64,000 nt of DNA from Myxococcales bacterium (GTDB lineage Bacteria; Myxococcota_A; Polyangia; Polyangiales; DASUME01). Of this stretch, positions 33,839 through 39,073 are shown in pieces. Under the pieces are notes generated by a model, which did not search any database, was not told the DNA's origin, and saw nothing but the letters and a program-made list of their open reading frames with translations. The DNA is taken from positions 3,712,001 to 3,776,000 of the forward strand of contig JASGJH010000001.1 in assembly GCA_047601445.1 (NCBI GenBank), in the 5' to 3' direction. Each line of letters opens with the position of its first letter. Positions within the stretch are counted from its first letter, which is position 1. The position numbers and the translations under genes were made by a program.

Positions 33839-34402
33839 TCAGTAGGAGAACTGCATGTTGGGGCCGAAGTAGGTGGCGCGAAAGGGCGTGGTTGCAAACC
33901 CCTGGTACGAGACCTCGAGCCCCACCGCGAGGCGCCTGCGCAGGGTCAGCAGGACGCCACCGCCCCCGAGGTAGCTGGCCCCGGTGTCGTTCTCGTGGCC
34001 GATGAAGCCGATGCCCACGCCACCCAGCAGATAGGGCAGCACCGGGCCCAGGCTCAATCCTGCACGGAGCGTCCCCAACCCCGCGATCGCCAGGAAGTCC
34101 TGAGTGACGTAGCCCGTGGCGCGCAGCCCGGGGGCCAGCACGACGGGGCCCAACCGGAAGTCGTAGTAGAAATCCCCGCTGAGGGCGAAGCCCACGTGAT
34201 GTTCGGGGCTGCGAAAGAAGGGGCCCGCGGTGAGGCCGAATTTCGGCCCGCGTGTGGCTTCTGCGACCTCTCGCGGGTTGGCGAGGGCCCGGGTCTCGAC
34301 GTTGGTGGCCTGGGCGGAGGCCAGCCGGGCGCTGCCGCTCAGCAGCAGCGACAGGAGCAAGAGCCGGGTGTAACGCACCAGCAGGTGGTCCTTCCACGTC
34401 AT
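33839..34402 (-). CDS. small outer-membrane beta-barrel protein
   Basis: Signal peptide; alternating amphipathic strands ([10 protein letters not shown]); C-terminal aromatic MQFSY. Confidence 0.7.
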
Positions 34403-34638
34403 TTTTTCGGTCTACTGCCAGCTACCGATCCTCGCCATGTGCTGTACAAAAGCAGCGCGGCGCGCTCAGCTGCCCCGTGTCCCGCTGGGAATCCCGGCGA
34501 TCTGCGAATGCCTAGGCCAAGACAGGAGACGTGCGGTTGTGTCGAACCGATGGGATCTGCTAGTCGAATGGCCGAGCGTGCATACGTGCTGAGCAGCGCT
34601 GCGCCCGTAGCGAAACCAGTGCAAAGGAAAAAGCTGCC

Positions 34639-35169
34639 ATGAATGCAGTGAAGAAGACCACGAGCAGCAAGAAGAAGGGCACCGCCGAGGTGGCCAAGAA
34701 GCCCGCAGCGAGCGTCGCTCCGAGCGCCAAGGGAGCGGCCAAGGTGGCCACGAAGGCCGCCAAGAAGTCGAGTGGCAAGGATGCCAAGGCCGAGGCCGGC
34801 AAGAAGGCTCCTGCCAAGAAGGCGGCCCCCGCCAAGAAGGCGGCCCCTGCCAAGAAGGCAGCCCCCGCCAAGAAGGCAGCCCCCGCTAAGAAGGCGGCCC
34901 CCGCTAAGAAGGCGGCCCCCGCCAAGGCGCCTGCCAAGAAGGCAGCCCCCGCTAAGAAGGCGGCCCCCGCCAAGAAGGCAGCTCCTGCCAAGAAGGCGGC
35001 CCCCGCCAAGAAGGCGGCCCCCGCCAAGAAGGCAGCTCCTGCCAAGAAGGCGGCTCCCGCCAAGAAGGCGCCCACCAAGAAGACCTCGCCTGTTGCGAAG
35101 GCGCCCGCCAAGGCAGCGCCTGCCAAGAAGGCGCTCGCCAAGAAGACCACGGCCAAGATCTCCACCTGA
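34639..35169 (+). CDS. histone H1-like Lys/Ala/Pro-repeat DNA-binding protein
   Basis: AAGGA RBS; 13 PAKKAA units; about 54 Lys versus 3 acidic residues by hand count; no globular domain. Confidence 0.8.
34810..35070 (+). repeat. 18-bp coding tandem repeat (PAKKAA)
   Basis: ccY gcY aag aag gcR gcY units: 6 copies, PAKA, 7 copies, PAKKA; variation is synonymous in the + frame. Confidence 0.95.
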
Positions 35170-35194
35170 AGGCGCCACGGCTGTGGTGATCGCC

Positions 35195-35761
35195 ATGGAA
35201 GATCTGAGCATCGCCTCCGACGACCAAGAGTCGGATCGCGACGAGGACCTGGAAGAGGCCGAGGTCGACGCGGACGAAGTCGTCGAGGCCGAGGGCGAGA
35301 CCGTGGAGGAGACGAGCACGCCGCGCACGGGCCGAGCCTCCTTCGAAGAAGAAGAAGACGAAGAAGAAGACGACGAAGAAGAAGACGAAGAGAACGAGGA
35401 AGAGGAAGAGAGCGCGGAAGAGGAAGAAGAGAACGAAGAAGAGAAGTCGTCGAGCTACGAAGACGAAGAAGACGAAGAAGAAGACGAAGACGAAGAAGAC
35501 GAAGAAGAAGACGAAGACAAAGACGAGCGCGCTGACAAAGAGGACGACGAGCGCGAGGAGTCGCGTGAGTTCGGACAGAGTGAATCCCGCGACGACGAAG
35601 AGCGCGACGAAGACGAAGAAGACGAAGAAGACGAAGAAGACGAAGAAGACGAAGAAGAGTACGAGCCCGGCGACGACTCCTCCGTTCGCGACGTCAACGA
35701 AGAGGACGACGACGAAGACGACGAAGACGACGAAGAAGACGAAGACGACGACGAAGACTGA
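35195..35761 (+). CDS. extremely acidic low-complexity (Asp/Glu) protein
   Basis: 188 aa, about two thirds D/E; gaa/gac triplet tracts; GGTGATC anti-SD match before ATG; may instead be fused to the upstream ORF via an indel. Confidence 0.7.
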
Positions 35762-36077
35762 CCAGGCAGAAAAGCCGGCTTGCTCCCCCATCGCAGTCTG
35801 GCTGCCTGACCCGCCTTGGTTTGTGCGCTCGCGCAGGCCGAACCACATGTGGTGCGGGCACTGCGCAAGGCCGCGAATCTCTCTTCAACGAAGCTCGAAA
35901 GCCGCCTCGCCATCGAGGCGTAATCAAGCCCACCATCGTGCAACATGGGCTTGCCTATCGGTGCATGATAGGTGGCAAACTTAAGCGCACAGAGTTTCGG
36001 GGGAACGACACCGCAGCGCCTCGCCCTTGGGGAGCGCATTCGTAGCGGTGCGCCCAAGCAGCGGAGGAACAGGTTTC

Positions 36078-36791
36078 ATGCGGAGAACGTGGACGGCGAT
36101 GTCGGTCTTTTTGTGGGCTTGTGCCGGCGGTCAAACGCCCCAGCTCAACACGGCCGCGGAGGCCAGCAGTGCCCAGCCCAAGTCGGCGGAGGAAGCTCCC
36201 GCTGCGGACGCCTTGAGCAAGAGCGCTCCTCAAACCGCCCAGAGCTCCGCCAACAACGCCAAGACCGTGCCTGCGCCCCAGGGCTGCACACCGAGCGCCG
36301 GTCAGCCCAAGACGGTCTCCGGTGAGAGCAGCGCGAGCGACAGCGCCGAGACGGGCCAGGCCCTGATCTTCGACGTCGCCGGCATCGGGCTCGAGTTCCC
36401 CGCCTGTACCCCGGAGACAGACGTCCGCGTGATCACGGTCTCGTGGGACACCAAAGATCGCCCCAACGCCTCGCATATCCATCCGAACTTCTCGCGACAC
36501 GCCGCCACCTTGCGCGTGGATCAGACGATCACCGCGCGCGACGGTTCTCCGCTGATGGTGCGCCTGCACAGCAAGCGCGAGCTCGCCAAGCCGGGCGAGA
36601 AGTTGGTGCTCGCGGTCGAGAGCAGCGGCGAATGCACCGACCAGAACAAGCGCGACAAGCTCGACGACGACGGTTGCTCGCAGTGGGCAATCTACGACGC
36701 GTCCTTCGACTCCCAGACCAACGAGATGGTCGCGCGCATCCCCGCCACGGGCGGCTATCGCATGCAGTTCGGCTGGCTTCCGAACAAGTAG
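36078..36791 (+). CDS. hypothetical lipoprotein
   Basis: GGAGG RBS; FLWAC lipobox. Confidence 0.7.
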   Translation: MRRTWTAMSVFLWACAGGQTPQLNTAAEASSAQPKSAEEAPAADALSKSAPQTAQSSANNAKTVPAPQGCTPSAGQPKTVSGESSASDSAETGQALIFDVAGIGLEFPACTPETDVRVITVSWDTKDRPNASHIHPNFSRHAATLRVDQTITARDGSPLMVRLHSKRELAKPGEKLVLAVESSGECTDQNKRDKLDDDGCSQWAIYDASFDSQTNEMVARIPATGGYRMQFGWLPNK

Positions 36792-36892: not shown

Positions 36893-39073
36893 ATGCGTGA
36901 CCTTCTCCGGGCGAAAGCGCCGGTCGCAGCGGCCGCCGTGCTCCTGCTTCCGATCGGCTGCAGCAGGGACTCCAAAGAGGAAGCGACGCGCAGCGGCCAG
37001 TTCGAGCTCGGCACCTTCCGGGTCGAGGTCGGGACCGACGCCAGCCTGCGGGTCAGCCACGCGAGCCTGCCGGAGCGCGTGATCTTCTCGACGCCAGGCC
37101 ACTTCGTGCAGGCCTGGAGCGCGAGCGAGAGCCTGGAAGAGCAGAACGGCTCGGTGACCTTGAACGAGCAGGTCGACGAACGCTGCGACGAGCAGGGCGA
37201 GCTCTCCATCTCCCGAGAAGGAGACGGGCTCCGGATCGCGACCAGCCTCGATTGCAAGGGGGGAACGATCCCCGTCATGCTCAGGTTCGCACCGCTCGGC
37301 GATCGCGCACTCGGCTTTACGTTGAGCATCGCCCCACCCTCCGGCTCTCCGTTCAACCAAGTGGTGCTCACGCCCGAAAGCGTCGCCGGCGAGCGCTTCG
37401 TGGGCTTCGGCGAGCAGTTCAGCTACGTGAACCTGCGCGGGCAGGCCATGCCGATCGTGGTCCAGGAGGGCGGCATCGGGCGCGCGCCGGGCACCGTGCG
37501 CGACCAGGTGGAGGCCTTCGCACCCGGCACTGGCGGCAGCTTCTTCAGCACCTACGCTCCCATGCCCTACTACTTCACGGACCGCGGTCGCTCGCTCCTG
37601 CTCGAGAACAGCGAAGTAAGCTTCTTCGATCTCAGCGGCACGGACACGGTGAGCGTGCGGCTCGCTGGCCTGGACATGCGCGGGAGACTTCTGTTCGGCA
37701 AGACTCCAGGGGACATCGTGGCCGCCTTGAGCGATTACACGGGACGCATGCAGTCCTTGCCCGACTGGATTCAACGCGGCGCCATCGTGGGCATGCAGGG
37801 CGGCACGCAACGCGTGCGCGAGGTGCAGGCTCAACTCGCGGCGCTCGACACGCCCGTGGCAGCTTTCTGGCTCCAGGACTGGGTGGGCAAGCGCGACACC
37901 CCGCTCGGTTCACGCCTGTGGTGGAACTGGCAGCTCAACCAGACGCAGTATCCCGACTTTGCTCCGTTGGTCTCGGACCTGGCCGCCGCCAACGTCCACG
38001 TGCTCACCTACGTGAATCCGTACCTGGTCGACGTAGCAGGCGATCCGGCCTTCACGCGCAACCTCTACGCCGAAGCACGCGAACGCGGTTACTTGGTGAA
38101 GGACCGCGCAGGAAACCCCTATGTGCACGTGAGCGGAACCTTTCAGGCGGGCGTCGTGGATCTCACCAACCCCGCCGCGGTGCGCTGGCTGCAAGACGTC
38201 ATCCGCGACGAGCTGCTCGCCGTGGGTGCCACCGGCTACATGGCAGACTTCGGGGAGGGACTCGCGTTCGACGCCGTGCTCGCGAGCGGCGAGGCCCCCA
38301 CGCTCATGCACAATCGCTGGCCCGAGCTATGGGCCCAGCTCAACCACGACCTGCTGCAGGAGCAAGGCAAGCTCGGCGACGTCGTGTTCTTCACGCGCTC
38401 GGGCTTCACACGCAGCCCCAGCTGGTCGAGCCTGTTCTGGACCGGCGATCAGATGGTGGACTGGGATGCGAACGACGGCATGGCGAGCTCCCTGACGGGA
38501 CTATTGAGCTCCGGCCTCTCCGGCGTCAGCCTCAACCACACCGACATCGGCGGTTACACGGCCTTCGGCGGCGTGAAGCGGAGCGAAGAGCTGCTGCTGC
38601 GCTGGATCGAGTGGAGCGCGTTCACCACCCTTTTTCGAACGCACGAGGGCAATGCGCCGGCAGACAACGCGCAGATCTACAGCAATGCGAGGACGCTCGA
38701 GCATTTCTCGAAGTTCGCCAAGCTGTACGCGGCGCTCGCGCCCTATCGCAAGCAACTGATGCAGGACGCTCAAGCCACGGGCGCTCCCCTGGTGCGACAC
38801 CTGTTGCTCGAATATCCGGACGATCCGCGCGCGTGGGACGCCGGCACGGAGTTCATGCTCGGACCCGACGTGCTGGTGGCGCCGGTCTTTGCCCCGGGCG
38901 CGACGCGCGTGAGTCTCTATCTGCCAGCCGGCTCCTGGGTCCAGCTCTACACGGGCAAGACCTTCGCTACGCCGGGTGATATCGAGGTGGAGGCGCCCCT
39001 CGGACAGCCCGCCGTGTTCTATCGAGCAGGTTCGAATGTCGGACAGACGCTCGAAGCGGCCGCGGCGCCCTAG
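36893..39073 (+). CDS. GH31 alpha-glucosidase, sulfoquinovosidase (YihQ)-like lipoprotein
   Basis: GFGEQFS; GMQGG; WLQDW; RLWWNW; YMADFGE; WTGDQ; HTDIGGY; RTHEGN; lipobox PIGC. Confidence 0.85.
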   Translation: MRDLLRAKAPVAAAAVLLLPIGCSRDSKEEATRSGQFELGTFRVEVGTDASLRVSHASLPERVIFSTPGHFVQAWSASESLEEQNGSVTLNEQVDERCDEQGELSISREGDGLRIATSLDCKGGTIPVMLRFAPLGDRALGFTLSIAPPSGSPFNQVVLTPESVAGERFVGFGEQFSYVNLRGQAMPIVVQEGGIGRAPGTVRDQVEAFAPGTGGSFFSTYAPMPYYFTDRGRSLLLENSEVSFFDLSGTDTVSVRLAGLDMRGRLLFGKTPGDIVAALSDYTGRMQSLPDWIQRGAIVGMQGGTQRVREVQAQLAALDTPVAAFWLQDWVGKRDTPLGSRLWWNWQLNQTQYPDFAPLVSDLAAANVHVLTYVNPYLVDVAGDPAFTRNLYAEARERGYLVKDRAGNPYVHVSGTFQAGVVDLTNPAAVRWLQDVIRDELLAVGATGYMADFGEGLAFDAVLASGEAPTLMHNRWPELWAQLNHDLLQEQGKLGDVVFFTRSGFTRSPSWSSLFWTGDQMVDWDANDGMASSLTGLLSSGLSGVSLNHTDIGGYTAFGGVKRSEELLLRWIEWSAFTTLFRTHEGNAPADNAQIYSNARTLEHFSKFAKLYAALAPYRKQLMQDAQATGAPLVRHLLLEYPDDPRAWDAGTEFMLGPDVLVAPVFAPGATRVSLYLPAGSWVQLYTGKTFATPGDIEVEAPLGQPAVFYRAGSNVGQTLEAAAAP

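Follow-up and report, generated by a model that had tools for sequence, protein, structure and literature searches.

A lineage-restricted basic-acidic charge-block gene in a Myxococcales bacterium, present as two ORFs or cut in two by an assembly error

Does this bacterium encode a histone-H1-like polycation and a polyanionic partner as two neighboring genes, or are the two reading frames the halves of a single gene? The question is raised by the window, the whole 64,000-nt stretch analyzed here (contig JASGJH010000001.1, positions 3,712,001 to 3,776,000), taken from a genome (G000) assembled as one 9.5-Mb contig with 66% G+C. An earlier note on this DNA described a 176-aa Lys/Ala/Pro ORF with 13 PAKKAA units and a net charge of about +50, ending at 35169, and a 188-aa Asp/Glu ORF of net charge below -100 that begins 25 nt later on the same strand, and it proposed that the pair forms a two-gene module. 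Our recount bears out the description. The basic ORF contains K54, A68 and P21 in its 176 residues, for a net charge of +51 with 13 exact PAKKAA units. The acidic ORF, read from the ATG at 35195, is 67% D/E over 188 residues with a net charge of -114, and its acidic stretch is within the genome's top three 50-aa windows for D/E content.

The charged locus and its flanks

The features of the locus, in window coordinates, are as follows.

33839..34402, minus strand: divergent beta-barrel-like gene, synteny anchor, 64% identical in the relative G007
34403..34638, plus strand: upstream non-coding region, with blocks at about 34403-34500 and 34560-34598 conserved in G007
34639..35169, plus strand: Lys/Ala/Pro-rich basic block, a 176-aa ORF that is likely the N-terminal half of a single gene
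34813..35070, plus strand: 18-nt tandem array coding the PAKKAA repeats, 14.7 copies
35157..35169, plus strand: junction, with GATC at 35157-35160 in the context GATCTCCA and the stop at 35167-35169
35168..35194, plus strand: the 25-nt "gap", which scores as coding and gives EGATAVVIA in the acidic frame
35195..35761, plus strand: acidic Asp/Glu block, 188-aa ORF from ATG 35195, likely the C-terminal half of one gene
35807..35990, plus strand: downstream non-coding blocks, 35807-35854 and 35937-35990, conserved in G007
36078..36791, plus strand: lipoprotein-like gene, synteny anchor, 75% identical in G007

Codon use is typical of real genes in both halves and neither contains an internal stop; in the basic ORF all 54 Lys codons are AAG and GC3 is 0.84. 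The likeness of the basic block to a histone H1 tail, which had been suggested earlier, agrees with its composition. Neither ORF has a convincing match in a Pfam profile search, where the best for the basic ORF (E 0.031) is far below the cut-off, and neither reaches a cut-off in NCBIfam. An exact look-up in a protein collection found neither ORF, nor the flanking lipoprotein as called.

The sequence AAGGA lies at 34624-34628, upstream of the basic ORF start, and the region 34403..34638 is probably a promoter and ribosome-binding region held in common with the divergent gene. No sigma-70 consensus was found at the locus, including the region upstream of the basic ORF, and no terminator was found on its plus strand. 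The conserved non-coding blocks flanking the charged gene are possible promoter or regulator sites. Among the neighbors, the beta-barrel-like gene has a weak TIGR04565 match that is under the cut-off, and a gene for a glycoside hydrolase family 31 lipoprotein (36893-39073) lies between the lipoprotein-like gene and the next gene, a place from which it is missing in G007. The flanking genes give no hint of function for the charged protein.

The syntenic relative and the search for other pairs

The earlier note recommended searching relatives for adjacent ORFs of this kind with the flanking genes as synteny anchors. The search did find the two blocks linked, in one of the nine other genomes of the genus (G007, so that the gene was found in two of ten overall), but there they are fused and no adjacent ORF pair exists. 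Between the same two flanking genes G007 carries a single 418-aa ORF, a Lys/Ala/Thr block followed by an Asp/Glu block, with no stop at the junction and with its only Met at position 1. The start codon, the AAGGA, the first residues, the block order and the charge balance are conserved between the two genomes, the charge layout being +51 then -115 in G000 (on the one-gene reading) and +69 then -101 in G007. The repeat units are wholly different: PAKK occurs 15 times in G000 and never in G007, TKK once in G000 and 14 times in G007. Similarity within the blocks is weak when measured against shuffles (N-terminus p<0.001, acidic start p 0.04, C-terminus p 0.04), and the gap by itself does not resemble the G007 linker significantly (p 0.19, against shuffles). 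BLASTP of the full chains returned no alignment, probably because of their low complexity. The presumed orthology of the two charged genes is based on the flanks and the non-coding blocks.

The remaining genomes of the genus constrain the locus less. Genomes other than G000 are 72-99% complete, and the eight without the locus are each broken into 570-1580 contigs, for which reason we call the gene "not found" in them rather than absent. Two of them, G004 and G002, have different genes upstream of the lipoprotein. This distribution bears on one rival explanation, that we are looking at a young, lineage-restricted low-complexity gene without a nucleoid role, either one that is poorly expressed or is decaying following a genuine frameshift, or one that serves as a scaffold or a cation-binding polyanion. 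Presence in two of ten genomes, repeat units that differ wholly and the lack of a family match would all fit such a gene. However, the low genome count may come from incomplete, fragmented assemblies; conservation extends to the start codon, the ribosome-binding site, the upstream blocks, the order of the charge blocks and the charge balance; and both halves keep normal codon use without internal stops. We consider this explanation improbable.

We also scanned 48 other loci, picked for Lys-rich DNA, acidic DNA or the anchor gene. A Lys/Ala-rich ORF is present at 37 of the 48, and both charge blocks occur in one chain at 2/48; no locus has an acidic ORF of its own on the same strand and within 400 nt. 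The order-wide DNA search covered 151 genomes with the best three candidates per genome scored, and pairs elsewhere are possible. A search anchored on the lipoprotein revealed no second syntenic locus in metagenomes (13 loci) or genomes (7 loci). The first 75 residues of the acidic frame, compared with longer or similar-length proteins, have no close fused or stand-alone relative, which is weak evidence either way, and the best ESM Atlas score (0.77) is below a useful level. Conservation as a two-gene module is not supported: the sole syntenic relative has one ORF, and none of the 48 loci has a separate pair. The coupling of the basic and acidic blocks fares better, because they form a single chain in the orthologue.

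Whole-chain searches with the G007 protein matched 85 and 47 proteins, which we rejected as homologues: the matches are composition-driven and mostly Lys-rich tails on DksA, sigma-70, Rho and RNase E. Five proteins of other organisms (P0092, P0091, P0122, P0100, P0105) have a basic N-terminal and an acidic C-terminal block and no Pfam domain. The single-chain basic-acidic design recurs in them, and they are not callable as homologues.

The genus also has other charged genes. A second domain-less charge-block protein (G000:C1:3238523-3239755, minus strand; L148; L019, L022, L023, L024) has the reverse order, an acidic block followed by a Lys/Ala/Pro-rich one. G005 and G006 share its N-terminal motifs, and similar C-terminal parts occur in G002 and G009; the protein has no Pfam or NCBIfam match and is better conserved than the gene studied here. 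Small stand-alone Lys/Ala-rich ORFs with MAAKKKK-type starts occur at G000:C1:5649982-5650347, 3774705-3775391 and 2739272-2739454. These three have look-alikes across the genus, none of them with an acidic ORF within 400 nt in the scanned loci.

One gene or two

Relative to the basic frame the acidic one is shifted by +1, and it stays open from 34652 on, so a single surplus base close to where the basic block ends is enough to account for the two ORFs. Read as one gene with an X at the junction, the locus encodes a 373-aa product. A +1 switch at 35166 also emerges, without prompting, from a genome-wide codon model. In coding score the nine gap codons rank at the 55th percentile of internal coding sequence and among the highest 2.9% of 3127 stretches that follow a stop (density ratio 7).

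Extra bases of this kind are a systematic property of the G000 assembly. Six of the 104 G007 genes with orthologues in G000 are frame-broken there. In a comparison drawn from 570,571 bases of G007, 234,351 clean aligned coding columns contain 14 one-base insertions and 1 deletion in G000. Twelve of the 14 insertions overlap a GATC or lie no more than 4 nt from one (7.8% of control columns do so, p 4e-12), and 11 are at GAATC or GATTC. Away from GATC the same columns hold only two insertions plus the one deletion, and natural breaks between the two genomes thus look rare. The codon model recovers the same signature genome-wide, with GAATC or GATTC at 94 of 418 +1 switches as opposed to 10 of 529 +2 switches.

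A second class of switch has GATCTC or GAGATC beside it (18/314 of the other +1 switches against 2/507 of the +2 switches, p 2e-6; the studied locus is omitted from both sets). Eleven of the 18 lie inside a gene, nine as judged by Pfam continuity (for example, the YidC profile runs 1-35 and then 36-162) and two by G007 alignment; one is ambiguous, one is a natural-looking junction and five are uninformative. An extra base beside GAGATC/GATCTC breaks rpoB (G000:C1 near 2771022), yidC (near 7989571) and polA (near 251885 and 250722), and since these genes are single-copy in G000, their breaks are almost surely errors. The context GATCTCTG has a +1 switch at 8 of 59 coding sites. For the junction's own context, GATCTCCA, the count is 5 of 387 other coding sites compared with 12 of 3870 for ten control 8-mers (p 0.015). 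These five include an ABC ATPase and an adenylation domain that shares the junction's 10-mer on the opposite strand, and another is, judging by a motif, presumably polA.

Some +1 insertions occur at GAATTC-like words (GAATTTC, GAAATTC; G000:C1 near 3472539, 5923312 and 1296550), which are perhaps a second methylated motif. Two genes for methyltransferases of the Dam family are present in G000. Consensus errors arising at methylation motifs are known from long-read bacterial assemblies (PMC6591954, PMC11610603). The G000 insertions resemble such errors in being systematic, concentrated at one motif and found in a single-contig assembly; they differ in that the errors described in the cited excerpts are at Dcm sites and mainly substitutions, whereas in G000 they are one-base insertions at GATC (PMC6591954, PMC11610603).

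We therefore assign a probability of about 0.5 to the reading in which the two ORFs are one gene of about 373 codons, cut by an extra base beside GATC through an assembly error. It is favored by the fused 418-aa orthologue with the same flanks and conserved non-coding blocks, and by a +1 offset that sits on GATCTCCA, within a GATC-linked insertion class, next to a coding-like gap. Several observations argue against an error. The break falls exactly at the block boundary and the basic frame stops at once; among the 19 switches of the second class, this one included, a single other, a natural-looking junction, does likewise, and the remaining ones run on for 27-1194 nt before a stop. The commonest insertion signature, GAATC/GATTC, is absent at the junction, the two-gene reading gives better codons just ahead of the stop than the fused reading does, and a cruder 7-mer test found no excess (GATCTCC 0.9% shifted, 0.5-1.1% in three control 7-mers). 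The per-site error rate is only about 1%, and a single relative informs the ancestral state.

The ATG nine codons on also counts against an error. The earlier note had pointed to GGTGATC, here at 35185-35191, as a Shine-Dalgarno sequence for the acidic ORF. It is indeed complementary to the 16S 3' end of G000 itself, and the anti-SD match of ATG 35195 (-10.6 kcal/mol) has an energy that 6.9% of starts reach and only 1.3% of internal ATGs. As an argument for a start it is nevertheless weak: GGTGATC precedes 0/419 clear starts, as opposed to 0.14% of 9942 internal ATGs. In the acidic frame it is part of GTG GTG ATC (Val-Val-Ile).

These features are what a real split would explain, by fission in the G000 lineage or fusion in that of G007, leaving a co-transcribed polycation and polyanion that bind in trans. 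The stop exactly at the end of the basic block, the ATG with a strong anti-SD match nine codons on, the good codons up to the stop and the low per-site error rate all favor it, and the fused orthologue would show that the halves act together. By function, the acidic protein might then tune the basic one or strip it from DNA, in the manner of H1 and prothymosin-alpha. Against it stand fusion in the only syntenic relative and the lack of a separate pair at any of the 48 loci, the +1 offset on GATCTCCA with a coding-like gap, the absence of GGTGATC before clear starts and the apparent rarity of natural breaks between G000 and G007. We hold a real split to be a substantial possibility, somewhat short of even odds.

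The +1 geometry also invites comparison with programmed frameshifting, since a UGA stop with a downstream +1 frame is the arrangement of prfB. A programmed +1 ribosomal frameshift at ACC-UGA would yield a short basic protein and a long basic-acidic protein, and the shifted frame is open and coding-like. However, G007 has no stop there, so nothing of a site is conserved, and no Shine-Dalgarno-like element lies just upstream. Re-pairing from ACC to CCU would also be poor. We regard programmed frameshifting as highly improbable.

In a rough likelihood sum the probability of an error varies between 0.05 and 0.91, according to the fission rate assumed and the weight given to the Shine-Dalgarno match. 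The proposal of a two-gene module is weakened a second time by the split itself, which matches the assembly's systematic errors in both sign and sequence context. The module is not conserved, and the chance that it is an artefact of assembly is even. On either reading the basic and acidic halves belong together. The broken rpoB, yidC and polA mean more generally that any "split gene" finding in this assembly needs a check for GATC at the break.

Predicted function and its place among known systems

What survives is likely a lineage-restricted protein of one basic and one acidic block, whose function is only predicted. Its hydrophobic residues are few (25/373 in G000 on the one-gene reading, 39/418 in G007; 8 in the first 175) and its charges are strongly segregated (kappa about 0.5), and the composition suggests that both blocks are disordered. 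We hypothesize that the Lys-rich block would bind DNA, RNA or polyphosphate without sequence specificity. The longer acidic block, tethered to it and with a charge excess, may fold back as a nucleic-acid mimic and compete for the basic block. In place of tight compaction, the outcome would be binding that is weak and exchanges fast, or a chaperone-like role in which the protein buffers other basic proteins; with a real split, this basic-acidic contact would be made in trans. Provided that the protein is made, we think it reasonably probable, by analogy, that the acidic half masks an H1-like DNA-binding half.

Linker histone H1 and prothymosin-alpha are oppositely charged, disordered partners of similar size, whose high-affinity complex frees the polycation from DNA. 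Given a real split, G000, with two ORFs as assembled, would resemble them in having two oppositely charged chains, where G007 has one. Unlike H1 and prothymosin-alpha, the locus has no globular H1 domain and its orthologue is one chain. Long Lys/Ala/Pro repeat blocks predicted to bind DNA or polyphosphate also occur in Chlamydia Hc2 and in the mycobacterial HupB tail. HupB has an N-terminal HU domain, and the charged chain differs in having no HU-domain Pfam match. In its Lys/Ala/Pro-rich repeat composition the basic ORF is like the HC2/H1-like nucleoproteins; the HC2 profile (PF07382) matches neither the basic ORF at E<=0.1 nor either full chain at E<=0.001, and the G007 protein scores 20.1 bits against NF038053, for which the cut-off is 80.

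A long Lys/Ala/Pro repeat block with predicted binding to DNA or polyphosphate is likewise shared with the Pseudomonas AlgP and PhaF tails, and the Lys-rich tail of AlgP is thought to bind nucleic acid or polyphosphate (PMC11894788). In contrast to AlgP as portrayed in the cited excerpt, no structured N-terminal domain was found here and the repeat is PAKKAA rather than KPAA, which has 1 and 0 copies in the two chains (PMC11894788); AlgP, for its part, is without a 190-residue acidic block. Within the myxobacteria, Myxococcus CarD joins acidic and basic regions in one chain, and Anaeromyxobacter CarD has an H1-like basic region (PMC2919716). Adjacent acidic and basic regions, here predicted to be disordered, are likewise found in one chain in G007, and in G000 only if the break is an error. 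Unlike CarD, neither chain has a CarD_TRCF domain (no Pfam match) or an AT-hook core (GRP 0 in either), the charged blocks are much longer and account for the entire protein, and the basic block comes first.

The closest analogies for masking are HMGB1, which is autoinhibited by its D/E repeats (PMC10250230), and E. coli Hfq, whose acidic tip mimics nucleic acid and limits DNA aggregation (PMC5606850). As in these proteins, a tethered D/E stretch might act as a nucleic-acid mimic that masks a basic surface; in the accounts cited, HMGB1 and Hfq have a folded masked domain and a short tail, whereas here both parts are predicted to be disordered (PMC10250230, PMC5606850). The whole chain is net negative, -64 in G000 on the one-gene reading and -32 in G007. 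By the sequence features tested, the charged protein is not an HC2, AlgP, HupB or CarD, and by analogy it may work like H1-tail proteins with an acidic regulator. In the open literature we found no domain-less bacterial polycation-polyanion chain of such a kind.

If the locus is one gene, a protein made up only of a polycation of 170-200 residues and a polyanion of 200 residues would allow autoinhibition by charge blocks in the control of nucleoids or condensates to be tested in an unusually pure form, in a genus that has a second such chain in reverse order. If it is two genes, G007 and G000 would be a natural fused and split pair in which acidic chaperoning in cis and in trans could be compared directly. 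A natural fission, which we consider unlikely, would mean that one species has a self-masking single protein and its relative a free H1-like protein with a prothymosin-like chaperone, produced from one transcript. Were it true, it would provide a bacterial counterpart of H1 and prothymosin-alpha that comes with the fused form as its own control, and would illustrate the origin of trans-acting acidic chaperones from autoinhibitory tails.
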